Source of the DNA: a virus
Lineage: Duplodnaviria; Heunggongvirae; Uroviricota; Caudoviricetes
IMG/VR virus record: IMGVR_UViG_2778261572_000013
Span: 1-26,649 of that record
DNA: 26,649 bases
Strand: one strand, 5' to 3'
This document shows, piece by piece, positions 1,158-26,362 of the stretch. The position numbers and the translations under genes are program-made. The notes under the pieces were generated by a model. The model was given only the letters and a program-made list of their open reading frames with translations, was not told where the DNA came from and did no database searches. Every line of letters starts with the position of its first letter. Within the stretch, counting starts at the first letter, position 1.

Positions 1158-1230
1158 AAAAAAGCCCTCATGTCAGAGGGCTAAATTTAACTGTATGTTT
1201 GACCAGTGGTCAATGTATGTAAATATTAAA

Positions 1231-3000
1231 TCATACGTCAGGGGTAATCCAGTCGACTAAAGCCTCAATACTTTCGAAATCTGCACAGATATCTGAAAGA
1301 GGTTGTGTATCTGCTTTTGTTTTGAAATCAGCCCATACTGATTCATTTTTTTCTGTAAGACCCAAATGGTTTTCTATCGAACCATTTAGCCAAATCCAAA
1401 TATTTGCATTTCTCAGTTTTGCGGCTAATGATGACAAAAATTCTCTGGCGCCGGGCTTTTGAGACATAATAGCAAATGCTTCAGCTGCGGTAGTGTTACT
1501 ACCCTTTGTAGGCAAACCGGATCCATCGAGAGTGCATTCTCCATTAGCATGCATACTTCTCAAGATTTCTTTTAGTCGTAAAATATCCTCGTCATTATGT
1601 TCTAAGAAGTTGTTCCTTATTGCACCGCGGAACGCAAAATCTAAATCAACAATTGCTTTTGTAGGTATATCCATTGAATTTAGAATTTGCATCGTTTTAG
1701 ATATACTTTCAACGGACCCTGTTTCAATTAGTGCTATTTGCATCTGACCTAATGTTTTATTTTTAACTTTGTTAAAAATAAATGGGAGCAGAGTAGTCTC
1801 TGTTTTACCTTCTGTTAGTATTACATTGTTAGCAAACAAAACTTTTGAAGACTGTGTTAATGAAAATAAATGGGTTGCTTGTGCTGGTCGTTGTTCGATT
1901 ACTTTATTGACTGCTTCTTTTAATGTTAATCTGCAATGAGTGCCACGCTGACTGTTTTTTCTGATTAACACAGTGTCTTTTGCTAAGTCAGAGGTAATCA
2001 TTTGAGATGAATGGGTAGAGAAAATTATTTGATATCCATGATGAGATAGTGTTTTTAGAGATTCTCTAATTTGTTCGATAGCAAATGGGTGAAGATATAA
2101 CTCAGGTTCATCTATTAACAGTAGAGTAGTTGTTTTAATATCATCACCGTTGGTTATATCAGCTAAATGTCTTATTAGAGCCATCTGAATCGAACGCTGT
2201 GTGCCATGACCATAAGAAGAACAGTCACGAGCAATGCCGGGAAATGAATCTTCATATACTTTTACAGTCCCTGATTTAAATATATCCTTGAAGTCAGGGA
2301 GTTCGAAGTGTAGTTTTAAACTTATCCCAGGGAAGAAATCAGCAACTTTACTACTTATTGAATCATCAATATCATTGAGGTCCGATATTCGTTTATTACC
2401 GGTTGCAGTCATTCTTCTATTAACGGCATTTAAATGGCTTAGTATCCTTTGAGTGTGCTTCTCTTCTATTTTGCAACTCAATTCTGCCAGCAACTTACCT
2501 ATTGTAGTTCCTGTTTTTGATTTTGAAGAATCATCCGCTGCATTTTCCATTGCACCTATACGTATTGGGTCTGGAAATAAAGCTTTTATCGCATTCTCAA
2601 TACCCGTTGGTGATGTCCTGAATTCGTTATTTTCTGGGTTTTTAATTAATAATCTGACGTCTTTTGCACTTTGAGCACCAACAGGCTGTTGACGTTTAAA
2701 TATCAATACCCCATCAATAATGTAGGGTGAAATTCTAGTTCTGTTTTCTTCTGTTAAAGCTGACAAAATATCTTCAGTAATACCCTTAACTGTACCTATA
2801 ACTTCTATAGGGTTATCTGGATTAGTATAATCATCAGAGGACAAAAGTTTTTTCTTAAAAAGCCATTCAATAGCATTTAAAATCGTTGACTTACCAGCAT
2901 TGTTGTAACCGATTAAAGGCGTGAATGAAGAAAAATTGATATCAATATCTTTGCAAGATCTAAAGTTTTTTATAGAAATCTTTGAAAGATGATGATTCAT
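1231..3000 (-). CDS. OLD-family ATP-dependent endonuclease (ABC-type ATPase N-terminus plus Toprim C-terminus)
   Basis: 589 aa. Walker A GYNNAGKST, signature-like HGTQRS, Walker B LLLIDEPELYLHP, H-loop FSTHS, then Toprim-like E (ILTEGKTE) and DxD (VDLDFA). Size matches P2 Old (586 aa). AT-rich relative to the phage core. No adjacent helicase gene. Confidence 0.75.
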   Translation of the reverse strand: MNHHLSKISIKNFRSCKDIDINFSSFTPLIGYNNAGKSTILNAIEWLFKKKLLSSDDYTNPDNPIEVIGTVKGITEDILSALTEENRTRISPYIIDGVLIFKRQQPVGAQSAKDVRLLIKNPENNEFRTSPTGIENAIKALFPDPIRIGAMENAADDSSKSKTGTTIGKLLAELSCKIEEKHTQRILSHLNAVNRRMTATGNKRISDLNDIDDSISSKVADFFPGISLKLHFELPDFKDIFKSGTVKVYEDSFPGIARDCSSYGHGTQRSIQMALIRHLADITNGDDIKTTTLLLIDEPELYLHPFAIEQIRESLKTLSHHGYQIIFSTHSSQMITSDLAKDTVLIRKNSQRGTHCRLTLKEAVNKVIEQRPAQATHLFSLTQSSKVLFANNVILTEGKTETTLLPFIFNKVKNKTLGQMQIALIETGSVESISKTMQILNSMDIPTKAIVDLDFAFRGAIRNNFLEHNDEDILRLKEILRSMHANGECTLDGSGLPTKGSNTTAAEAFAIMSQKPGAREFLSSLAAKLRNANIWIWLNGSIENHLGLTEKNESVWADFKTKADTQPLSDICADFESIEALVDWITPDV

Positions 3001-3043
3001 TTTAGACTCCTCCAGTAAGTATTTAAAAGTAATGTCTGCAATG

Positions 3044-3982
3044 TTATTGTATTGTTAAGATAATGCTGGCTATAATTTGAATATCCTCAATGGAACACTC
3101 AAAATCCTTACTCCCACCAGAAACAAGAATTTTGTTCTTAGGTAAACGAGTTAACTCTTTTAAAGATAACTCATTGTCAATTCCTACTAACCATTTTCCA
3201 TCTCTAATTAGGTGAAATTCTTTATCACATATGACATGTTTTTCTCCATTGCTTACAAACATCAAGCTGCTAGTTTCTTGCTTCGGAAGTAGACACCGAT
3301 CCATGGATAAAAAACCTGACTCGACAAGCACGCCATTGACCAAATTGAACTTATTTAAAATTACAGTGTTTTCTTCTTGTGAACTATTTGGTGTTTCGAT
3401 TCCTGTAACTAGCCAGGCGAGATCCGCTTTGGTTTCTAATGCGCATTTAATCACCCAATCCGCAGGGAAAGAATCTCGCATGTATCGTGTGGCTAATGTG
3501 CTTTTTGAAATACCAAGGTGGTCGGCTAAGGCTTGGCGGGTTTTAAACCCGTAAGCATTAACAATCCTCTCTATCGCGGCTTTTCCTCCGTTAGTAAGCT
3601 CAATGTGATTCTCAATGCGGCGCTTAAAGGATGATTGATGAGCGTTGCTGTTAAACCCCTCATGTGGGACTGTTTCATCATGTTGTTCCACATAAGGGGG
3701 GAAACTTTCTTCTGCATTGTTAGAACCAAAGGCCAGCCATTCTAGGGATGCGCCAGTTTCCATTGAACATATAACAACCCAATCAGCAGGGAAGGTATCG
3801 CGTGCATATCTATTAGCCATTGTGCTTTGTGAAATACCAAGATGCTTACAGAAGGCTTGGCGTGATTTGAAACCATAGGCCTTGAGTATCCTCTCAATGA
3901 CTTTTTGCCCTCCACGATTCTGCATGACCATAGCTTTCAGACTATCTTCAATATGGCGAAATGTGATTTTTTGAGTTGACAT
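3044..3982 (-). CDS. 186 CI-like immunity repressor with tandemly duplicated N-terminal DNA-binding domain
   Basis: 312 aa. Residues about 29-85 and 137-193 are paralogous (IERI.AYGFK.RQA..HLGIS.ST.A.RY.RD.FPADWV..C..ET.A.L.WL), resembling the phage CI repressor N-terminal domain. Divergent from the cox/cII operon, as expected for the repressor. Confidence 0.7.
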   Translation of the reverse strand: MSTQKITFRHIEDSLKAMVMQNRGGQKVIERILKAYGFKSRQAFCKHLGISQSTMANRYARDTFPADWVVICSMETGASLEWLAFGSNNAEESFPPYVEQHDETVPHEGFNSNAHQSSFKRRIENHIELTNGGKAAIERIVNAYGFKTRQALADHLGISKSTLATRYMRDSFPADWVIKCALETKADLAWLVTGIETPNSSQEENTVILNKFNLVNGVLVESGFLSMDRCLLPKQETSSLMFVSNGEKHVICDKEFHLIRDGKWLVGIDNELSLKELTRLPKNKILVSGGSKDFECSIEDIQIIASIILTIQ

Positions 3983-4069: not shown

Positions 4070-4291
4070 ATGACCCCTAACATTTCAATAACTCTGAATA
4101 CGCCACACGTCACAATTGAGCGTTATAGCGAACTTACTGGTCTTTCTATCGACACCATCAACGATATGCTGGCTGATGGTCGTATCCCTCGCCATCGCCT
4201 TCGGAAAGACAAGAAAAGAGAAAAGGTAATGATCAACCTTGCTGCTCTTACCGTTGATGCACTTACTGATTGCAATGTTGTATTCAACTAG
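4070..4291 (+). CDS. Small DNA-binding protein, Cox/Apl-like (excisionase/switch regulator) candidate
   Basis: 73-aa basic protein, first gene of the rightward early operon, with an HTH-like segment ([25 protein letters not shown]). Assigned by position and size only. Confidence 0.5.
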
Positions 4292-4323: not shown

Positions 4324-4833
4324 ATGTTTGATTACCAAGTTTCCAAACATCCACATTTTGATGAAGCCTGTCGTGCATTTGCATTGCGCCACAACTTGGT
4401 GCAACTGGCAGAACGTGCAGGTATGAATGTGCAGATTCTGCGGAACAAGCTGAATCCAGCTCAACCTCATTTATTAACCGCACCAGAAATTTGGTTGCTT
4501 ACTGATCTGACAGAAGACTCAACACTGGTAGATGGTTTTCTGGCACAGATTCACTGCCTGCCATGTGTTCCGATTAATGAGGTGGCAAAAGAGAAACTGC
4601 CGCATTACGTCATGAGTGCAACAGCAGAGATCGGGCGTGTAGCTGCAGGCGCGGTATCTGGCGATGTAAAAACCAGTGCAGGCCGTCGTGATGCTATCAG
4701 CAGCATTAACTCTGTAACACGACTGATGGCGTTGGCTGCTGTTTCATTGCAGGCCCGTTTACAGGCTAACCCTGCGATGGCGAGTGCAGTTGATACCGTG
4801 ACTGGCCTCGGTGCTTCATTTGGTTTGCTGTGA
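4324..4833 (+). CDS. Phage regulatory protein CII-like (186 CII/CP76 family)
   Basis: 169 aa starting at MFDYQV with an AGGAG RBS 5 nt upstream; position after the apl-like gene as in 186. Family assignment is from memory of the CP76-type sequence, not verified. Confidence 0.55.
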
Positions 4834-10078: not shown

Positions 10079-10098
10079 TACTGTAAATATAAACAGTG
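10079..10098. promoter_or_regulatory. LexA (SOS) box
   Basis: taCTGTaaatataaACAGtg matches the CTGT-N8-ACAG consensus, with promoter-like hexamers just upstream, about 45 bp before the 10140 ORF. Confidence 0.7.
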
Positions 10099-10139
10099 GT
10101 TATATATACAGTATTGCTTGTGGTGTCATAGGAGGAAAG

Positions 10140-10328
10140 ATGCAGGACTATTTTTTGGAGTCTTTGAAGCTCCAGCGCATTGATTTTTTTCTTAAGCTTG
10201 TAGCGGCTAGTGAGTGTAGTGATGAAGAGAAGGGGCTGGCTTTGCAGTGGGTTTCTGAACTGACAGATGAACTCATGGCAAAAATCAGAAGCCACGAATA
10301 CAACCGCTCAATGGATGTCATCAGCTGA
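10140..10328 (+). CDS. Small SOS-controlled protein, possible Tum-like antirepressor N-terminal module
   Basis: 62-aa ORF with strong RBS (AGGAGG) directly downstream of the LexA box; position matches the LexA-controlled tum locus of phage 186 after gene A. Confidence 0.45.
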   Translation: MQDYFLESLKLQRIDFFLKLVAASECSDEEKGLALQWVSELTDELMAKIRSHEYNRSMDVIS

Positions 10329-10338
10329 GGGGACTTTT

Positions 10339-10572
10339 ATGCGCATTGAAATAATGATCGATAAAGAGCAGAAGATTAGCCAGTCTACCCTGGACGCCCT
10401 TGAATCCGAGCTTTACCGCAATCTGCGCCCCCTGTATCCCAAAACGGTAATTCGTATCCGTAAAGGTAGCTCTAACGGTGTGGAACTGACCGGACTGCAA
10501 CTGGACGAAGAAAGGAAGCAAGTGATGAAAATTATGCAGAAGGTGTGGGAAGACGACAGCTGGCTGCATTAA
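10339..10572 (+). CDS. DinI-family protein
   Basis: 77 aa starting MRIEIMIDKEQ, ending WEDDSWLH; resembles DinI (MRIEVTIAK ... WESADDWF). RBS GAGGGGA. Confidence 0.75.
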   Translation: MRIEIMIDKEQKISQSTLDALESELYRNLRPLYPKTVIRIRKGSSNGVELTGLQLDEERKQVMKIMQKVWEDDSWLH

Positions 10573-10842
10573 GAAACGTTGCTGGCGTCTGAACTTGCTT
10601 CTGGCGTCAGCAAGGTTGAACAACGAGCTGTGCGAGGCGTTAGTGTCAATTTGTTACCTTAACCACGATATATGCTAGGAAATTAACAGTTCTTAAGAAA
10701 CCGCTTGCATGATCGAGCGCATTGAACTTAAGTTTAAGTAACGAAATCAACAGATGATATTGTTGTCTAAATTTTAAAGATAATCTGTTGAGGTTGTAGG
10801 CGTCGGAGTGTAGACTTCCGCGCCATGTAAAAAGGGGGAGTT

Positions 10843-11058
10843 ATGTCAAGCATCGCCGCATTTAGCCTGGGTAACCCAGTTGAACGTCTGGCAAGGGTTC
10901 TTAAAGAGAACCAGGACAAACTCAATCTTAGTAAAGATGGTTTTGTGTCCGTAGACTTGTCTAACAAAAGAGCAATGGATGCCATCAAGGCACAGATGGA
11001 TAAGCTTGAAGGCATCAAAACGAGCACTGTAAAAGAGAAAACTAATAGAACCAGATAA
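10843..11058 (+). CDS. Hypothetical small soluble protein (cassette 1, gene 1)
   Basis: 71 aa with strong RBS (AAGGGGGAG). AT-rich. Stop overlaps the next start (TAATG). Confidence 0.55.
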   Translation: MSSIAAFSLGNPVERLARVLKENQDKLNLSKDGFVSVDLSNKRAMDAIKAQMDKLEGIKTSTVKEKTNRTR

Positions 11059-11900
11059 TGGCAACATTACTTTTAGCAGTGATTTTGGTTAGTGGTTTTA
11101 TTTATGTAAACCTATCACTTTCAACAAGATACCGATATAAGCGTTCCAACGGCTGGGACGCTTATTTTTTTGTGGCTGCCTGGGGTATCGTTTTTTTTCT
11201 CCTTGGCGGTTTTTTCACCTTTATTTTGAACGTCAGCGGAGGGTTTCGTTGGCTGGCTAATGCCTTGAATCTAACACCTGACAGTTTTAATGGCATGTTG
11301 TCTTCATCGAAAGACAAACTTCAAAGAATAAATGAAATCAAACAGATAGCATGGGTTATGATTTCAATTGTCCTCGCTGCGATTTCAGGTTTTGGAAATA
11401 AGTTACGCACATCACGTGGAGATCGTCGCTGGGATGCCTTAGCTAAAGCTGTGGGTAATAACGCTTTCGAATCATTACTCATGGAAGCGTCCGCAAGACA
11501 GTTTCCGATCATAGCAACTCTGTCGTCTCGCAAAATCTATGTTGGTCTTGTTACTTGTCCGGCGTTAGAAAACGGGCTTTCAGAGCACCTTGAACTTCTC
11601 CCGATGTTAAGCGGATATCGGGATAAAGATGATCTAACGATTAGTATCACGACTAACTATCACCAACATTATCTTGATAGTGGTGTGATAAGTGGAATGT
11701 CTCGGCTTAATATCGAAGATTTCCGTGTGCTCATACCAAAAGATGAGGTTGAAACAATTTCGTTTTTTGATACTGAGACATATAACAAATTTAAAGAAAA
11801 TGAAGCCAGGGATAGAAAGAGCTGTCGAAAGATTGGTAGTAAAAGTGCATCTTCGCACAGCAAGCGTGCAGCAGATACTGAGTCAAATGATCGTGCATGA
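11058..11900 (+). CDS. Hypothetical membrane protein (cassette 1, gene 2)
   Basis: 280 aa; three hydrophobic segments in the first about 115 residues, then a hydrophilic domain of about 165 aa. Translationally coupled to the 71-aa gene. Confidence 0.55.
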   Translation: MATLLLAVILVSGFIYVNLSLSTRYRYKRSNGWDAYFFVAAWGIVFFLLGGFFTFILNVSGGFRWLANALNLTPDSFNGMLSSSKDKLQRINEIKQIAWVMISIVLAAISGFGNKLRTSRGDRRWDALAKAVGNNAFESLLMEASARQFPIIATLSSRKIYVGLVTCPALENGLSEHLELLPMLSGYRDKDDLTISITTNYHQHYLDSGVISGMSRLNIEDFRVLIPKDEVETISFFDTETYNKFKENEARDRKSCRKIGSKSASSHSKRAADTESNDRA

Positions 11901-11948
11901 CTATGCTGCATGAGATCGCATGATCGTTTGAGGATCGTTTTTGCTAAG

Positions 11949-11972
11949 GCCCGCCAGAACTGGCGGGCTTTT
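11949..11972 (+). terminator. Rho-independent terminator after cassette 1
   Basis: GCCCGCCAG-aa-CTGGCGGGC perfect 9-bp stem followed by TTTT. Confidence 0.7.
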
Positions 11973-12231
11973 GCATAGATCATGCACCTGCATGAAAACT
12001 ACTACATAAAGCGGGCAGGCGTGGCGGGGATACGAGCGCGCGCTGTCGGTATTTTCAAAATTTAAGTAAGATAGTAAATGCAAAATGTGTATCACTCTAT
12101 CGGGTACAGAAAAACCATTCAGAAACTATAATTGAACAGTAACAAACGTGATGATGTTCACTTTTTTAAATTTTTTATATAAACTGATGGGTACTATGAC
12201 AGTAATATGCCAGCTTGCGTGAGAATGAATT

Positions 12232-12696
12232 GTGGAAAAAGAGCTAAATCAAAATCAGATCAGTGAAGTGCAGATTAATGTCTGCCACAAAATCTATGAA
12301 TTTTTTAAGTCTTTAGATGGAGCATCCGATTTCAAAATCGAAACTGAAACCAGTGGCGATGATGGCGATCTAAGTTTTTCTTTTGAGCAATCAAAGACTA
12401 TTTTTAAAGTGGAAGTGCTTTCTACAGAATACTTTAAATTAATTAGAATTATAAATGCATTTGACTTTACCGCAACAAAGTCTATTGAGGAAATGAATTT
12501 ATTAGGCAGGGCAAATCAATTTAATGCATATGCAGTGGGCATTAAGGCTCTGGTTCATACTAAAAAAGTAGGTTATGTTGATTTCTGCGTAGATATATTA
12601 TCTTCTAAAGGTGACGTTAATTCTAGCGATCTTAATTTATCCTTGGTCTTACTAAGAAGTGCGCCAATGAATTTTCTGGCAGTAACTAAGGACTAG
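12232..12696 (+). CDS. Hypothetical acidic soluble protein (cassette 2, gene 1)
   Basis: 154-aa ORF from a GTG start, AT-rich, no recognised motif; followed 10 bp later by the next gene. Confidence 0.45.
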   Translation: MEKELNQNQISEVQINVCHKIYEFFKSLDGASDFKIETETSGDDGDLSFSFEQSKTIFKVEVLSTEYFKLIRIINAFDFTATKSIEEMNLLGRANQFNAYAVGIKALVHTKKVGYVDFCVDILSSKGDVNSSDLNLSLVLLRSAPMNFLAVTKD

Positions 12697-12706
12697 TGAG
12701 GACAAT

Positions 12707-13480
12707 ATGCCAACAAAGCCTAGTTTAGATGAAAATTCAACGTTAAACTTGAAGGCGCAATCTTATTTAAAAGCTGTCTCGGTAGATGCCTCAAATGATT
12801 CTACCCACAATGGATGGAATGCTGATGTAATTATTTTTTTTGTTTTCATTGTTGTTGTAATGGCTCTGACACTATCAAAATGGCTTCAGAATAAAATAGA
12901 TGAATTTATTTCAAAAAAATATTTTAGATGGGTTTTTTCTGGGGTAATTCTTCCAGCGATATCGTTAGGCTTAGCAAGCTACACAACAGCATCAAATCAA
13001 AAATTTGTATACATTGCTACAATTATAGTAAGTCTTGTGATTGGTGAGCGAGCTTCTGCACTGACAGCTGAGAAATCCGAACAACAACTTGAGGCTGAGA
13101 CAGGAAAATTAACTAGCAAAATAAGTGTGCTAGAAGCTGCACATACTAAGGCTTTGGAAAAGAAAGATGCTGAACTTGCAGCTAAAGGTAATGAAATTAG
13201 AGCTGTATCTGATGAGCTTACTAAAAGAGTTGATGAGTTACGTCAGAATTATTTGCGAAGATTGTACGAAATAGCTACAGATCATCAAGAGGCTGATTGT
13301 GTTGTCATTAAATTGAGAGTAAAAGAGGTGGCTCAAGATATTATGGCAACAAGTGGGCTTCTTTTAACTATGGATAGTATTGATTATCAGGTGAGAAATA
13401 ACCAAGTTCCGTTGCCACAGGAAAGTTCAATTGTTTATGAATATGCTATGAAGAATGCTAAAGCTCGAAATCAGCAATGA
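12707..13480 (+). CDS. Hypothetical membrane protein with coiled-coil domain (cassette 2, gene 2)
   Basis: 257 aa with RBS GTGAGGA; three hydrophobic segments (about residues 41-113), then a heptad-like charged region (EKSEQQLEAETGKLTSKISVLEAAHTKALEKKDAELAAKGNEIRAVSDELTKRVDELRQ). Confidence 0.55.
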   Translation: MPTKPSLDENSTLNLKAQSYLKAVSVDASNDSTHNGWNADVIIFFVFIVVVMALTLSKWLQNKIDEFISKKYFRWVFSGVILPAISLGLASYTTASNQKFVYIATIIVSLVIGERASALTAEKSEQQLEAETGKLTSKISVLEAAHTKALEKKDAELAAKGNEIRAVSDELTKRVDELRQNYLRRLYEIATDHQEADCVVIKLRVKEVAQDIMATSGLLLTMDSIDYQVRNNQVPLPQESSIVYEYAMKNAKARNQQ

Positions 13481-13484
13481 TTTT

Positions 13485-13516
13485 AAAGCCAAGTCAGTGT
13501 TAACTGACTTGGCTTT
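13485..13516. terminator. Bidirectional hairpin terminator between cassette 2 and portal gene
   Basis: Perfect 14-bp inverted repeat AAAGCCAAGTCAGT-gtta-ACTGACTTGGCTTT flanked by T/A runs, between convergent genes. Confidence 0.7.
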
Positions 13517-13518
13517 AA

Positions 13519-14547
13519 TTACAGTTTATATTCAGAGAAATTTATAATGCGCTCACCCAACCAATAATTAATCTCTGCAATCCGCATTTGCAGGGCTACT
13601 AGCTCATTTCGCACAAAAACATTTGCCGCCTTCTCTACATCCCCAAACCCTCCAACATTATTAGGCATTATCCCCATCATTTGCGGCGGTACGCGGTGCG
13701 CCGCCATCATGTCGTCCCGGCTCACGTTCTTGATATTCAGAAACTCATCCTTCGCCGCGACTTCTGACAGAGGAATGATCTGAAGCCCATCCTTTTTGCC
13801 GTTAGGCGAGTACATAAACAGGTTGCGGAAGTTACCCGGTCCTTTGGCGCTTTTCATTGCGTTGCGGAGGTTGTTCACATCCTCCTGGTTTTGCGCGGCA
13901 TCGGTCATGTACATGATGAAGCCTGCATGACTGCCGTTAATGTAATACTTCCGGCGGAACAGCGTGGCGGACTCGTTGAGCAGAGCGGATGGAATAGCAG
14001 AAAGATAGCCAGGCAGGCCGTAGATCTCCTGATTAATATCCGGTTCCATCAGATGAAAGATGCTGCCTTTCGTGAACTGATACGGCTGGGTTGCCATACC
14101 GTATTGCACAAACCAGTAGGTATCCAGGTCTAATCCGCGTCGAGTGTATTTTGCCAGGGCAGGTTCAAGGGCGATAACTTCACCGAAGCGGTTCGTGCGT
14201 TTCTCCAGGTAGGCATTACCAAATACCAGATAGTCCTGCACAAAACGTGAAAAAGCCTGCTGGCTGAGCAACGGGTGAGGGATATAGGTGCTGGTCAGAA
14301 TGTTGCACTTTACTGCAATCGGTGAGCTGTGGTGTACGGCGGCGCGGAAGGTTCGCGCCAGGCCGTCGAAACTCACTGGTGGCTCATACCAACGGTCCAT
14401 CTGTACGCATTCCACATAGTCCAGCAGTTCGCGGCGGTCCAGAACAGGAACGGGATCACCGAAGCTGAATGCTTCGGCTGAAGTCTGGTTTTTATGCTGG
14501 ATCTGTTTCGTCGCCGCAGCGCGGTTCTTCTTACTCTTTCCCATCAA
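13519..14547 (-). CDS. Q: Portal vertex protein (P2 gpQ-like)
   Basis: 342 aa (P2 Q is about 344 aa), leftward, adjacent to the terminase remnant, in the P2 cos-Q-P arrangement. Confidence 0.8.
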   Translation of the reverse strand: MMGKSKKNRAAATKQIQHKNQTSAEAFSFGDPVPVLDRRELLDYVECVQMDRWYEPPVSFDGLARTFRAAVHHSSPIAVKCNILTSTYIPHPLLSQQAFSRFVQDYLVFGNAYLEKRTNRFGEVIALEPALAKYTRRGLDLDTYWFVQYGMATQPYQFTKGSIFHLMEPDINQEIYGLPGYLSAIPSALLNESATLFRRKYYINGSHAGFIMYMTDAAQNQEDVNNLRNAMKSAKGPGNFRNLFMYSPNGKKDGLQIIPLSEVAAKDEFLNIKNVSRDDMMAAHRVPPQMMGIMPNNVGGFGDVEKAANVFVRNELVALQMRIAEINYWLGERIINFSEYKL

Positions 14548-15236
14548 AAAATCTCCACAATATTGCTGGTATTGGCGGACTCGCCCTGCAGTGGTTCGTT
14601 AAACAGTGCGTGCATTGTTGCCCAGGCCAGATCGGCATGGCTGGCTTCTTCGCTGCGGCTGGCTTCATAGGTCGGGCGGTTGCCGCTGGCGGTGGTGGCG
14701 CGACGGATTGCCATGAATGACTGCGCAATGTCGGTGTGCCCGGCGTCAAACTCAAGACGGCGGTGGCTGATAATGTCGTAGGCCTTGAGTACCAGGGCGT
14801 TTTTAACGTTGGGGTTGTAGACAAACTCCCGGACGGCAGGAAAAAACGCTTTCACGTTCTCGTAAACCCCGTGACCAACGCCGGTTGAGTCGATGCCGAT
14901 ATAGGTCACGTTGTACTGTTCGGTCAGTTTTTTGATGGCGTCAGCTTGGGCGCGAAAGTCCATTCCGCGCCACTGGTGACGCTCAAGAATGCGGAACTTA
15001 CCGCCTGGCACGGCTGGCGGTGCCACCACCACGCATCCGGCGCTGTCGCCGTTCTGCGTACCTTTTGCCGGGTCATAACCGATCCACACTTCGCGCCAGC
15101 CAAACGGGCGCAGGGCCAGTGCATGAAAGTCGGTCCAGACTTCCCAGCTGTCGGTACAAATACCGCGCATTGTTTCACTGCCCCCATCACCGCAACCATA
15201 AGGCTCCAGTAAGTTTTTTCTAACGGAGCACGGCTC
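14544..15236 (-). pseudogene. P: Terminase large subunit (gpP) 3' fragment; N-terminal ATPase domain missing
   Basis: Open frame ends where the O gene starts. The segment from about WIGYDPAKG...DSAGCVVVAPP onward resembles a terminase nuclease domain. No Walker A region is present, and the frame's first 47 codons are antisense to the O start. Confidence 0.6.
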
Positions 15237-16070
15237 ATGACAGTGAAAGCAAAGCGTTTTCGCATCGGGGTGGAAGGTGCCACCACCGACGGACGCGAAA
15301 TCCAGCGTGAATGGCTGGAACAGATGGCAGCCAGCTACAACCCGGCGGTGTATACCGCGCTGATTAACCTTGAGCACATCAAGTCTTATCTGCCGGACAG
15401 CACCTTTAACCGCTACGGCAAGGTGACGGCGCTGTTTGCTGAAGAAATCACGGAGGGTCCGCTGGCGGGCAAGATGGCACTGTATGCCGACGTTGAGCCA
15501 ACGGAGTCCCTGGTGGAACTGGTGAAAAAAGGCCAGAAATTATTCACCTCTATGGAAGTCAGCCCGAAGTTTGCTGATACGGGCAAAGCCTACCTGGTCG
15601 GCCTGGCAGCCACTGATGACCCAGCCAGTCTGGGTACGGAAATGCTGACATTCAGCGCCAGCGCAGCCCATAACCCGCTGGCAAACCGCAAGCAGAATCC
15701 CGCCAATCTCTTTACCGCCGCAGAGGAAACGGTGATCGAACTGGAAGAAATCCAGGATGACAAACCGTCCCTGTTTGCCCGTGTCACGGCGCTGTTTACA
15801 AAAAAAGAGCAGTCCGACGATGCCCGGTTTTCTGATGTGCATAAGGCCGTGGAACTGGTCGCCACTGAGCAGCAAAACCTGAGTGTGCGCACCGAAAAAT
15901 CCCTTTCTGAGCAGGAAGAACGTCTGTCTGAGCTGGAGACAGTTCTGCAGGCACAACAGGCCGCCTTTAACGAACTGGTGGACAAGCTGAGCCATGAAGA
16001 CAGCCGCCAGGACTACCGCCAGCGTGCAACGGGCGGTAACGCCCCCGCTGACACTCTGACCAATTGCTGA
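15237..16070 (+). CDS. O: Capsid scaffolding protein (P2 gpO-like)
   Basis: 277 aa (P2 O is about 284 aa), first gene of the rightward head operon, GGAG RBS. Confidence 0.8.
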   Translation: MTVKAKRFRIGVEGATTDGREIQREWLEQMAASYNPAVYTALINLEHIKSYLPDSTFNRYGKVTALFAEEITEGPLAGKMALYADVEPTESLVELVKKGQKLFTSMEVSPKFADTGKAYLVGLAATDDPASLGTEMLTFSASAAHNPLANRKQNPANLFTAAEETVIELEEIQDDKPSLFARVTALFTKKEQSDDARFSDVHKAVELVATEQQNLSVRTEKSLSEQEERLSELETVLQAQQAAFNELVDKLSHEDSRQDYRQRATGGNAPADTLTNC

Positions 16071-17799: not shown

Positions 17800-17894
17800 C
17801 AGAACGTGCCCCCGCGCACGGGCGGCACGGGGTGGCGAAAGGCATAGCCACATCAAAATCCCGTTCACCGCCCTCTATTTCAGGAGAAAGCAGC

Positions 17895-18125
17895 ATGAAG
17901 TTTGTTGCGCCAGAACAGGCACCGGAACAGGCGGAAATCATCAGAAATACGCCGTTCTGGCCTGATGTGGACCTGTCGGAGTTTCGCAGCGTGATGCGCA
18001 CTGACGGCACGGTGACGCAGCCGCGTTTAAAGCAGGTTGCCCTGTCTGGACCGACGGCATTGGTAATACGTCGGGCGTCATTCCCGGCAAAACCATTACG
18101 GAGCGACAGGCAGCAGAAGGGCTGA
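17895..18125 (+). CDS. L: Head completion protein gpL-like, probably 3'-truncated
   Basis: ATG 17895 with AGGAGAAAG RBS; only 76 codons (P2 L is about 169 aa); frame is lost where lysozyme-like sequence begins in another frame. Confidence 0.4.
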   Translation: MKFVAPEQAPEQAEIIRNTPFWPDVDLSEFRSVMRTDGTVTQPRLKQVALSGPTALVIRRASFPAKPLRSDRQQKG

Positions 18126-24029: not shown

Positions 24030-25715
24030 TTATCCTAATCCTGGCCATACCATGACGATGATTGTCCCTGCCAGCGTCAGCAGGACGTTGGCGATTGCAT
24101 AGGTGCCCGCATAGCCCAGCGCCGGGATGTTACTGCGAGCTGTATCACTGATGATCTCCATTGCCGGCGCGCAGGTACGTGCGCCCATCATTGCGCCGAA
24201 CAACAGTGCGCGGTTCATTCGCAATACATAAGCACCGAACAAGAAACAGATAACCACGGGCACCAGACTGACAATCAATCCGGCAATCAACATCTGACCG
24301 CCAATCGCGCCCAGGCCGTTATTAATACCGCTACCGGCGCTCAGACCAACGCCTGCTATAAACACCATCAAGCCGAACTCTTTCACCATGCTTAATGCAC
24401 CTTGCGGAATGTAACCGAAGGTCGGGTGGTTAGCACGCATAAAGCCCAGCATAATTCCGGCGAATAACAACCCGGCAGCGTTCCCCATGCCGAAACTGAA
24501 TGTGCTGAACTGGAAGGTGATCATCCCGATCATCAGCCCAATAACAAAGAAGGCGCAAAATGCCAGCAGGTCAGTGACCTGGCTGTGAATCGAGATAAAG
24601 CCGATGCGATCGGCGATGGTTTTTACGCGACGGGCATCACCGCTGACTTGTAAAACGTCACCTTTGTTAAGCACGACGTTGTCATCTATCGGCATCTCAA
24701 TCTGGCTACGAATGACGCGGTTAAGGAAGCAACCGTGATCGGTCAACTTCAGTTGTGCGAGACGTTTACCTACAGCGTTATGGTTTTTAACGACCACTTC
24801 TTCAGTGACGATACGCATGTCGAGAAGGTCACGATCGAAAACTTCTTTACCGTTACGGAAGCTGGGATCGAGTCGGGCATGGGCGTCGGGATAGCCTACC
24901 AACGCTATTTCATCGCCCATTTGTAGCACGGCATCACCGTCTGGATTTGCCAGAATCCCGTTACGTCGAATACGTTCAATGTAGCAGCCGGTTTGTCGAT
25001 AAATACCCAGTTCACGCAGATTTTTGCCGTCGGTCCAGGCCACCAGCTCCGGGCCGACGCGATAGGCGCGGATCACCGGTAAATAAACCTTACGGTTGGC
25101 ATCAGTGTCCAGGCCACGTTCGCGGGCGATTTGCTGGGCGCTGGTCTGTAAGTCCTGATGCTGCAATTTCGGCAAGTAACGCGCACCAACAATCAAACTC
25201 ACCAGACCGATTAAATAGGTTAAGGCATACCCGAGGCTCAGATTATCCAGTGCCAGTGAGAGCTGCCTGCTTTCCATGCCGGAATGACGCAGTGTATCGC
25301 CAGCACCGACCAGAACCGGTGTCGACGTCATAGAGCCTGCTAACATACCGGCCGTCAGGCCAATATCCCAGCCAAACAGCTTACCTAACCCTAAGGCGAT
25401 CACCAGCGCACTGCCAACCATCACCAGTGCTAACATTAGGTAATTTTTCCCATCGCGAAAAAAAATGGAAAAAAAGTTCGGTCCGGCTTCGACCCCGACG
25501 CAGAAAATAAACAGCATAAAGCCAAGATTAAGCGCATCGGTGTTAATGCTGAAATGTTGTTGGCCTAATAACAGCGATACGACTAAAACGCCAATGGAAT
25601 TACCCAGTTGGATCGAACCAAGTCGTAACTTTCCGAGACATAGCCCAAGCGCGAGGACCACAAATAATAACAGAATGTAATTCCCATTTAACAATTCGGC
25701 GACGTTTATATTCAC
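24030..25715 (-). CDS. ybjL: Putative transport protein YbjL (AspT/YidE/YbjL family)
   Basis: 561-aa polytopic membrane protein recognised as E. coli-type YbjL from its sequence ([20 protein letters not shown]...), with TM blocks flanking a central soluble domain. Confidence 0.85.
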
Positions 25716-25984: not shown

Positions 25985-26362
25985 GTGAAACATAAACAAC
26001 GTTGGGCGGGGGCAATCTGCTGTTTTGTCCTCTTCATTGTGGTGTGCCTTTTTCTGGCGACGCACATGAAAGGCGCTTTTCGGGCTGCCGGGCATCCTGA
26101 AATCGGCTTGCTATTTTTCATTCTTCCTGGAGCAGTGGCCAGCTTCTTTTCACAGCGTAGAGAAGTCCTGAAACCTCTGTTTGGCGCAATGCTGGCGGCA
26201 CCCTGTTCGATGCTCATTATGCGGCTGTTTTTTTCACCGACGCGCTCATTCTGGCAAGAGCTGGCATGGTTACTAAGCGCGGTGTTCTGGTGTGCGCTGG
26301 GGGCACTGTGTTTCTTATTTATCAGTAGTTTGTTTAAACCACAGCACAGAAAAAATCAGTAA
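25985..26362 (+). CDS. ybjM: Inner membrane protein YbjM
   Basis: 125-aa hydrophobic protein, GTG start, located between ybjL and grxA as in E. coli. Confidence 0.7.
   Translation: MKHKQRWAGAICCFVLFIVVCLFLATHMKGAFRAAGHPEIGLLFFILPGAVASFFSQRREVLKPLFGAMLAAPCSMLIMRLFFSPTRSFWQELAWLLSAVFWCALGALCFLFISSLFKPQHRKNQ

Follow-up and report, generated by a model that had tools for sequence, protein, structure and literature searches.

A P2-type Class 1 OLD nuclease gene in the repressor-integrase slot of a decayed 186-like prophage of Escherichia coli

The window analyzed here, a stretch of 26,649 nt (IMG/VR virus record IMGVR_UViG_2778261572_000013, positions 1 to 26,649), carries a 186-like prophage of E. 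coli inserted between rcdA and ybjL/ybjM. We find that the gene at 1231-3000 on the minus strand encodes a stand-alone Class 1 OLD protein of the P2-Old type, i.e., an ABC-type ATPase with a helical insertion, followed by a C-terminal Toprim nuclease. The gene lies between those for the repressor (cI, 3044-3982) and the integrase (int, 105-1157), all three on the minus strand, as had been stated in an earlier note made from the sequence of the window. Taking its parts together, we consider it likely that this protein is the cargo of a slot for defense genes, that its expression is linked to that of cI, and that it acts by a P2-like abortive infection in which tRNA is the most likely target. 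The identity of the protein is not itself new; standard defense-annotation models call the gene, and RefSeq already annotates it.

The assignment to the OLD family rests on concordant profile, pairwise and structural evidence. According to the list of open reading frames (ORFs), 1231-3000 is a single frame of 589 codons that begins with ATG and has no interruption, and direct reading of the sequence places a GGAGG Shine-Dalgarno element at 3009-3013 (minus strand), 8 nt 5' of the start codon. The profile searches that the earlier note had proposed matched both halves of the protein. The Pfam matches were AAA_15 (5.5e-33), AAA_21 (3.9e-17) and OLD-like_TOPRIM (PF20469; 1.5e-16, residues 388-454), and the PADLOC "Old" profile PDLC02358 was matched with E = 1.4e-234 and 778 bits, residues 3-585 corresponding to positions 2-578 of the 578 in the profile; the second-best PADLOC family, AriA, reached only 118 bits. 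P2 Old (NP_046798, 586 amino acids) aligns with the protein over its full length at 37% identity (BLASTP, E = 2e-134), and the two sequences can be aligned collinearly from residue 1 through 585. A tblastn search of phage genomes returned P2 old as the sole full-length match, again at 37% identity. Thus, the claim of an OLD-family ATPase/Toprim protein of the same size as P2 Old was correct.

An AlphaFold2 monomer model, for which 35 homologs served as input, had a pLDDT (predicted local distance difference test) of 83 and a pTM (predicted template-modeling score) of 0.72, with most of the C-terminal third above a pLDDT of 85. Long helices (residues 166-222) fill the insertion in the ATPase domain of this model. 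Its top match in Foldseek was the OLD protein of Thermus scotoductus (Ts OLD, 6P74; E = 2e-21, 624 alignment columns), followed by GajA and then by the OLD protein of retron-Eco8; a search of the Protein Data Bank with the sequence only gave the same ranking, with 6P74 the best match (E = 1.9e-13). A different C-terminal fold was seen neither in the match to 6P74 nor in the alignment with P2 Old, which runs through residue 585. Ts OLD is the structural prototype of Class 1 and matches the full chain of the model (TM 0.50-0.55), but it shares only about 17% identity with the protein, is reported to be dimeric and to cut DNA in vitro, is not borne by a prophage and has no known phage-defense phenotype.

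No partner (helicase, GajB or reverse transcriptase) is encoded by the adjacent genes, the only neighbors being cI and int. Given the published class definitions, this lack of an adjacent helicase, GajB or reverse transcriptase places the protein in Class 1, whose size range of about 500-600 amino acids also takes in its 589, in agreement with the single-gene, class 1-like arrangement without a UvrD or GajB partner that had been proposed. GajA (Gabija, Class 4) and retron-Eco8 OLD (Class 3) have the same ATPase-Toprim fold (Foldseek E-values of 1e-15 to 1e-20). However, GajA needs the GajB helicase, and retron-Eco8 OLD needs a reverse transcriptase and multicopy single-stranded DNA; neither partner is present at this locus. 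The PADLOC models for GajA matched the protein at 1e-20 to 1e-29, and the NCBIfam models for the effectors of retron-Eco8, MADS and PtuA scored far below their cut-offs. Membership in Gabija, retron or PARIS systems is ruled out by these scores, which lie far below that of the Old model and the NCBIfam cut-offs, and by the missing partner genes.

The protein most resembles P2 Old: the two have nearly the same length and the same ATPase and Toprim motifs, and each is the product of a single gene on a temperate phage of the P2 family. Both genes are AT-rich, with a G+C (GC) content of 34.8% in P2 and 35.3% here. The GC content at third codon positions is 25% in the present gene; int has an overall GC content of 48.8%, gene A 52.8% and the capsid gene 55.2%, and the capsid and tape-measure genes together span 55-56%, which bears out the AT-richness relative to int and the structural genes that had been noted. 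In other respects the two differ. P2 old, as the earlier note had it and the P2 annotation confirms, is next to cos after gene A, in the gpA-gpQ hotspot, where it has its own promoter and tin as a partner, whereas the present gene is in the cI-int slot and probably on the repressor transcript. Further, 63% of the residues differ between the two proteins.

Conservation of the catalytic motifs was counted over 122 aligned family members. The Walker A motif, G31-YNNAGK37S38 (encoded at 2887-2910, minus strand, as are all motifs that follow), is the GYNNAGKS of P2 Old, and K37 is present in all 122. In the Walker B motif, LLLID297E298 (2107-2124), D297 is likewise found in 122 of 122 and E298 in 121. 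A signature-like GHGxQR (residues 264-269) and an H-loop histidine, H330 (122/122), accompany Walker B and are common to P2 Old; the signature-like motif, too, varies little or not at all over the 122 members. In the Toprim domain, E397 and E401 of the E397-G-K399-T-E401 motif (1798-1812; E398, K400 and E402 in P2) are invariant and K399 occurs in 118 members, while both aspartates of D452-L-D454 (1639-1647; D453 and D455 in P2) are present in every one. According to a cryo-EM preprint, the catalytic pocket of P2 OLD consists of E398, K400, E402, D453, D455 and D541 (10.64898/2026.07.10.737580). Five of these six residues are retained. At the sixth, S541-I-E543 (1372-1380) aligns with D541-I-E543 of P2, with serine in place of the pocket aspartate. 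Column 541 holds alanine in 105 members, serine in 15, threonine in one and aspartate in one, which is P2 itself. Because the family has Ala or Ser at this column and an invariant Glu (E543) two residues on, P2 is the exception here rather than the protein from the window.

Strong purifying selection acts on the gene. The ratio of nonsynonymous to synonymous substitution rates (dN/dS, Nei-Gojobori) is 0.070 against the Citrobacter ortholog and 0.058 between the Klebsiella and Raoultella orthologs, synonymous sites being saturated in the more distant pairs. Among 5,426 complete E. coli genomes, 14 have the gene, intact and 99.6-99.9% identical, in the same arrangement (at least 99.2% identity over 4.9 kb). 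These 14 come from cattle, pigs, poultry, dogs, humans and seawater, and the RefSeq name of the protein in them is "ATP-dependent nuclease". We predict that the protein is very probably functional.

The prophage around it is a defective, deleted remnant and not an active phage. Set against a close relative, it retains just the C-terminal RNaseH-like domain of the large terminase (14544-15377), its gpL is cut short (17832-18125), and the genes for lysis, baseplate, tail fibers and sheath/tube are missing at approximately 18.1-18.8 kb; the prophage ends before ybjL (24030-25715) and ybjM (25985-26362). Both fil and the portal gene have become pseudogenes in its closest relative in RefSeq. These losses raise the question of whether the OLD gene is itself a nonfunctional or silenced relic without a present role. 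We regard this as very improbable, however, since its frame is intact with all the catalytic residues that bind nucleotide and metal, since it is conserved almost without change in genomes from unrelated sources and under purifying selection across genera (dN/dS 0.06-0.07), and since the cI, int and cII genes that adjoin it are intact as well. The sounder reading is that an intact and very probably functional OLD gene has persisted in a decaying prophage.

The position of the gene is that of a cargo slot. Homology with related phages breaks off on the left at approximately 1224-1236, at the stop codon of the OLD gene; on the right, it breaks off inside cI at 3432 in Klebsiella phage 4LV2017 and past cI at 3970 in E. 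coli phage 813R9. In place of the OLD gene, 4LV2017 has a gene for a 349-amino-acid protein of unknown function, and 813R9 and KP12 have PD-Lambda-1. Of the 1,329 E. coli records with a match to the region, we took 60 at even spacing and surveyed the slot in them. In this sample, the distance from int to cII ranges from 3.08 kb, when the slot is empty, to 5.3 kb. Roughly half of the slots are empty, with a span of about 3.08 kb and only an ORF of 63 codons. The remainder contain PD-Lambda-1 (3e-120), a KAP NTPase (PDC-S20; 2.6e-171), the PDC-M11 pair (PDC-M11A and PDC-M11B, 2e-130 and 4.5e-48) with a third gene, an ATPase-Toprim protein of 660 amino acids, unknown proteins of 329 or 349 amino acids, or IS5. 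Every cargo inspected in the slot has a GC content of 31-37% and the same orientation as cI and int. Conserved flanks around interchangeable, mostly defensive cargo in the relatives mark the cI-int slot as a hotspot for defense genes.

Such hotspots have been described before. A minor, "third" cargo hotspot between int or the tail genes and CI is known in P2-like phages (10.1101/2024.10.15.618418; PMC13586616), and a cI-int hotspot was reported in the K139-like P2 relatives of Vibrio by Rousset et al. in 2022 (PMC9122126). In position, conserved flanks and swappable AT-rich cargo, both are as here. The suggestion that the gene occupies an unusual slot is therefore not upheld: the hotspot is published, other defense cargo occupies it in E. 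coli, and an OLD gene is found in it at all six of the further loci described below. In the accessible portions of these three sources, no OLD clade is singled out as having occupied the slot for a long time, nor is the int-side module mentioned that we describe below.

Several observations were made on the slot in other E. coli. In strain C4 (NZ_CP010121.1; L021:1335-3317), the 660-amino-acid ATPase-Toprim protein matches an AriA-like ATPase model at 5e-22 and the PADLOC Old model at only 1e-15, and its OLD-like Toprim domain is just over the Pfam cut-off; the slot thus holds another lineage of the OLD family, one that has diverged very far. The empty slot of isolate AF6 (L022:1446-1637) has the 63-amino-acid ORF between cI and int, which is labeled "YdcA family protein" in some cases and hypothetical in others, and for which Pfam gave no match. 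At the same position, a 60-amino-acid ORF occurs alongside the KAP NTPase cargo (L024). In STEC307, the interval from the rcdA-side attachment site to int contains a candidate defense gene (DUF2971/PDC-S31; L025:590-1342). A 2026 survey mentions such an "att-to-integrase" location as a separate minor hotspot.

More than 2,000 homologs of the OLD protein are present in the protein database at E < 1e-30. The best 120 of these are 46-99% identical to it and 560-643 amino acids long (mostly 575-600), all of them are nearer to it than P2 Old is, and those with named sources are from Gamma- and Betaproteobacteria. In a neighbor-joining tree, the protein falls in a clade of 14 members, of which all named ones are from Enterobacterales and some pairs share as little as 52% identity. 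More broadly, it belongs to a large gamma- and betaproteobacterial clade (47-84% identity). To this large clade P2 Old is an outlier, being 35-40% identical to each compared member, whether in or out of the clade of 14. On all six clade contigs that were checked (Citrobacter, 84% identity; Klebsiella michiganensis, 77% and 53%; Serratia, 63% and 53%; Raoultella, 52%), the order is cI, OLD, int in a 186-like prophage, with a gap of 20-52 bp between cI and OLD; the neighbors at these orthologous loci are thus likewise cI and int. The cI-int slot is the usual home of the Enterobacterales OLD clade. Since orthologs down to 52% identity occupy the same slot, the arrangement is an old and recurrent one rather than a fresh insertion. 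A description of the gene as a horizontally acquired moron is fair in the broad sense.

Outside the clade of 14, a homolog with 54% identity is encoded in Pseudomonas aeruginosa (JBNTER010000021.1; L012:6001-7761) between a gene for a 232-amino-acid protein and the integrase gene of a Pf-type filamentous prophage. It is just upstream of this integrase gene, and genes for Zot and DUF2523 proteins are close by. This locus indicates that OLD genes are also found in an integrase-proximal slot of an unrelated type of temperate phage. A Vibrio homolog is beside an integrase gene with an nSTAND/Mrr gene, and those of Aeromonas and Stutzerimonas lie in small islets of the chromosome. When one genome per species was scanned with the OLD protein, only two remote matches, at 22-24% identity, were obtained.

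How the gene is expressed can be considered from its layout. The end of cI is 43 bp upstream of the OLD gene on the same strand, and neither a terminator (terminator scan) nor a stable structure (fold z = -0.5) was detected in the spacer. The corresponding gap is 20-52 bp in seven lineages. In the annotation of phage 186, cI and int abut and form one lysogenic operon driven by pL and by the CII-activated promoter pE. By analogy, the OLD gene is probably co-transcribed with cI: a leftward transcript from pL (maintenance) and from pE (establishment) would carry both genes, and OLD would be made whenever the repressor is made. The earlier expectation of expression in the lysogen is plausible, given that the gene is co-oriented with the repressor gene and 43 bp downstream of it. 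A site at approximately 4087-4059 (TTGAAA-17-CAACAT) is positioned like pL of 186 but is weak, and we do not claim it as pL.

Alternatively, the OLD gene could be outside the cI transcript and have a constitutive promoter of its own in the 3' end of cI or in the 43-bp spacer, in the manner of old-tin in P2. P2 old does have its own mapped transcript starts, AT-rich cargo often contains fortuitous promoters, and a weak promoter-like match is present at 3027-2999 (minus strand). However, the -10 element of this match ends at 2999 and overlaps the start codon, such that the transcript would be without the ribosome-binding site and the ATG; we rejected it as the OLD promoter. Promoter-like matches in the region are not in excess either (13 found vs. 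11.6 expected in shuffled sequence), and the short cI-OLD gaps in seven lineages, together with the shared orientation of cI and all inspected cargo, speak for linkage to cI. An independent promoter is therefore quite unlikely in our estimation, and co-transcription with cI is the reading that we retain.

The region between the OLD gene and int casts doubt on the proposal of a single repressor-to-int transcription unit. The lack of a terminator between cI and OLD agrees with the first part of such a unit, but a terminator-like hairpin and a LexA-box promoter intervene before int. A terminator scan placed the GC-rich hairpin AGCCCTC-TGACAT-GAGGGCT at 1163-1182 on the minus strand (-13.3 kcal/mol, z = -2.7); a T-run (1158-1162, minus strand) follows it directly and runs into the int ATG, and the int Shine-Dalgarno element sits in the 3' arm of the hairpin. 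A promoter scan found a sigma70-like promoter directed toward int (TTGACC-17-TTAAAT, 1185-1213, minus strand; TTGACA-16-TAAAAT in relatives). Between its -35 and -10 hexamers is a LexA-box-like CTG-N10-CAG (1189-1208, minus strand). In a rough test with a position weight matrix (PWM) that we built from SOS boxes of E. coli, this site scores 17.8, the third-highest value among the 26,630 positions of the window, and the next best position scores 8.6. The equivalent sites score 16-25 in relatives and approximately 0-3 in the corresponding regions of P2 and 186. Invariant bases, including ACTG...ACAGT between the hexamers, are found across 12 loci with eight cargo states.

The whole module (1158-1213) is kept in relatives with these eight cargo states, and also in Serratia, Raoultella and Citrobacter; the corresponding regions of P2 and 186 lack it. 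The spacer of 73 nt that precedes int is part of the conserved int flank. A second allele of the hairpin, present in relatives, folds stably as well (-14.5 kcal/mol, z = -3.7). We dropped a compensatory reading of the two alleles, as the 3' arm GAGGGC is common to both. RNAalifold on 12 sequences mis-registered the alleles and gave three pairs with almost no covariation.

With a terminator-like hairpin and a LexA-box promoter between OLD and int, the control of int is probably separate from that of OLD. The module points to SOS control of int and to its insulation from the transcript of cI and the cargo. From its own SOS-controlled promoter, int transcription would start within the 5' arm of the hairpin; the hairpin would terminate the cI-cargo transcript or silence the translation of int on it, and the transcript that carries cI and OLD would thus stop at, or be attenuated by, this structure. 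In the literature searched, we found no description of such insulation of int in P2/186-like phages and nothing relevant on LexA control of int in P2-like phages.

Two further features concern these elements. The perfect palindrome TTGACCACTGGTCAA (1199-1213), which occurs in this spacer allele only, includes the -35 element of the int-directed promoter, and it also gives a promoter-like match on the plus strand (1199-1227) that is antisense into the 3' end of the OLD gene. The two top PWM positions of the window are a pair of overlapping, near-consensus LexA boxes, TACTGTAAATATAAACAGTG and CAGTGGTTATATATACAGTA, at 10079-10113. Downstream of them are a small ORF and a DinI-like gene (10267-10572); phage 186 has its LexA-controlled antirepressor locus, tum, at this position.

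What the protein does may be considered in light of P2 OLD, its closest characterized relative. According to two recent studies, P2 OLD is an auto-inhibited tetramer that becomes active upon destabilization, and it kills by excising the anticodon arm of tRNA, with a preference for tRNA-Thr(UGU); its triggers are aberrant DNA in RecBCD-deficient cells and single-stranded hairpins of the lambda origin (PMC12445682; 10.64898/2026.07.10.737580). The lock of the P2 tetramer is a dimerization insertion within the ATPase domain. By homology, the OLD protein described here would rest as an auto-inhibited oligomer, and its ATPase portion would sense aberrant phage DNA, such as hairpins at replication origins or unprocessed ends under RecBCD inhibition. 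The opened Toprim site would then cut nucleic acid, with host tRNA, at its anticodon stem, as the most likely target; this would stop translation and abort the infection. The earlier note had ascribed phage exclusion and toxicity in recBC backgrounds to OLD proteins generally; the exclusion of lambda and the lethality in recB or recC hosts, like the tRNA cleavage and its triggers, are known only for P2 OLD (PMC12445682; 10.64898/2026.07.10.737580). As to the T-even phages, which it had proposed for a plaque test, the P2 annotation attributes their exclusion to tin, not to old.

The other Class 1 protein with a described activity in vivo is Vc OLD of Vibrio cholerae, which, like the present protein, is a stand-alone ATPase-Toprim defense protein encoded on an integrase-bearing mobile element. 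Its phenotype is abortive infection, and it is countered by Oad1 of ICP1. It raises the possibility that the OLD clade of the slot belongs to the same family but has another biochemistry, nicking or exonucleolytically degrading the replication intermediates of phages, possibly with no dependence on RecBCD. The activity of Vc OLD as a DNA nickase without RecBCD dependence (PMC12392090) is in keeping with this idea, as are the 37% identity to P2 OLD, the absence of D541 from the protein and from nearly all of its clade, and the fact that its best structural match is the DNA-cutting Ts OLD. However, Vc OLD belongs to another clade; its identity to P2 OLD is below 25%, and its motifs are differently spaced and numbered (K48, D313, D468/D470). 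It is thus much further off than P2 OLD, which aligns with the present protein end to end, and we rejected it as the nearest functional model. Moreover, P2 OLD cuts DNA in vitro too, though tRNA is its target in vivo. A DNA-directed clade of this kind therefore appears unlikely to us, and a P2-like abortive infection is favored, P2 OLD being the closest characterized protein and Vc OLD a much more distant one.

Several points weigh against our overall reading. The pocket residue D541 of P2 is serine here and alanine in most of the family, and 37% identity is too low for a safe transfer of substrate and trigger from P2 OLD. Vc OLD, also in Class 1, is a RecBCD-independent DNA nickase (PMC12392090), and Ts OLD cuts DNA in vitro. 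Further, a leftward pL was found neither by a consensus scan nor by eye, such that co-transcription with cI stands on layout and analogy. Finally, because the prophage is degraded, regulation may differ from that in an intact lysogen. In view of the 37% identity and the D541 difference, we hold tRNA to be the most probable target of the protein with the chances about evenly balanced, the main alternative being the cleavage of DNA.

A bolder proposal can be built on the clade and the module. The Enterobacterales OLD clade of the slot may be a functionally distinct Class 1 lineage with its own trigger and substrate, given its 35-40% identity to P2 OLD and the replacement of D541. Likewise, the slot may be a purpose-built expression socket, in which the cargo is expressed at repressor level in every lysogen and cut off by the hairpin, while a LexA-repressed promoter drives an insulated int only in the SOS response. 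That both propositions hold together seems to us possible but rather doubtful.

Class 1 OLD proteins are the founding members of a family of ATPase-Toprim defense proteins that includes Gabija, PARIS and retron effectors, and work in vivo on the class covers only P2 OLD (tRNA) and Vc OLD (DNA), whose substrates differ. Because it belongs to a large, uncharacterized clade that is nearer to P2 OLD than to Vc OLD, the protein in the window would be a useful third test case for the reach of tRNA targeting and RecBCD-linked sensing. The 186-like repressor-integrase slot is a stable home for defense genes, which remain intact even as the prophage decays. Current understanding is unchanged by these results, as annotation tools call the gene and the hotspot is published. 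Their modest interest lies in an entire Enterobacterales OLD clade in the slot, in an intact OLD gene within a decayed prophage, and in the apparently SOS-controlled module on the int side.

The flanking genes are typical of a 186-like prophage. Int, the left flank of the slot, is a tyrosine integrase of 350 amino acids (Pfam Int_N and Phage_integrase). The cI repressor has 312 amino acids, with two Phage_CI_repr helix-turn-helix (HTH) domains and a Phage_CI_C domain according to Pfam. Divergent from cI in a 186-type lysis-lysogeny switch, an apl/cox-like gene (4070-4291) is followed by a 186-type cII (4324-4833; Pfam Phage_CP76), both on the plus strand; these assignments follow the RefSeq annotation of a 99.9% identical locus and the map of 186.

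The repressor gene is a mosaic. Its first HTH domain is closest (84-86%) to cI proteins that accompany other cargo, whereas its C-terminal domain is nearest to those of the OLD carriers in Citrobacter (64%) and Klebsiella (54%), vs. 28-44% for others. The 3' part of cI (3044-3432) has a GC content of 35%. The covariation of the C-terminal domain, this low GC content and the breakpoint at 3432 indicate that the block that travels together is probably the OLD gene plus the 3' part of cI (1231-3432). For the second HTH domain, the nearest counterparts are the cI proteins with one HTH domain in the OLD carriers of Citrobacter and Klebsiella. The CI of 186 has one HTH domain and 192 amino acids, and a double-HTH cI (299-313 amino acids) recurs in several relatives. 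A functional tie between the double-HTH cI and OLD was considered and rejected, as OLD orthologs occur with a single-HTH cI and a double-HTH cI occurs with other cargo.

The gpA-gpQ hotspot, which houses old and tin in P2, is occupied here (10600-13500) by AT-rich ORFs that have no PADLOC match and no convincing Pfam match: 11058-11900 (280 amino acids), 12232-12696 (154 amino acids) and 12707-13480 (257 amino acids), the last with a match to TetR_C_4 barely over the cut-off. The second and third of these stand in place of a PIN-domain gene in the closest relative. We regard the ORFs of this hotspot as candidate defense or accessory genes.

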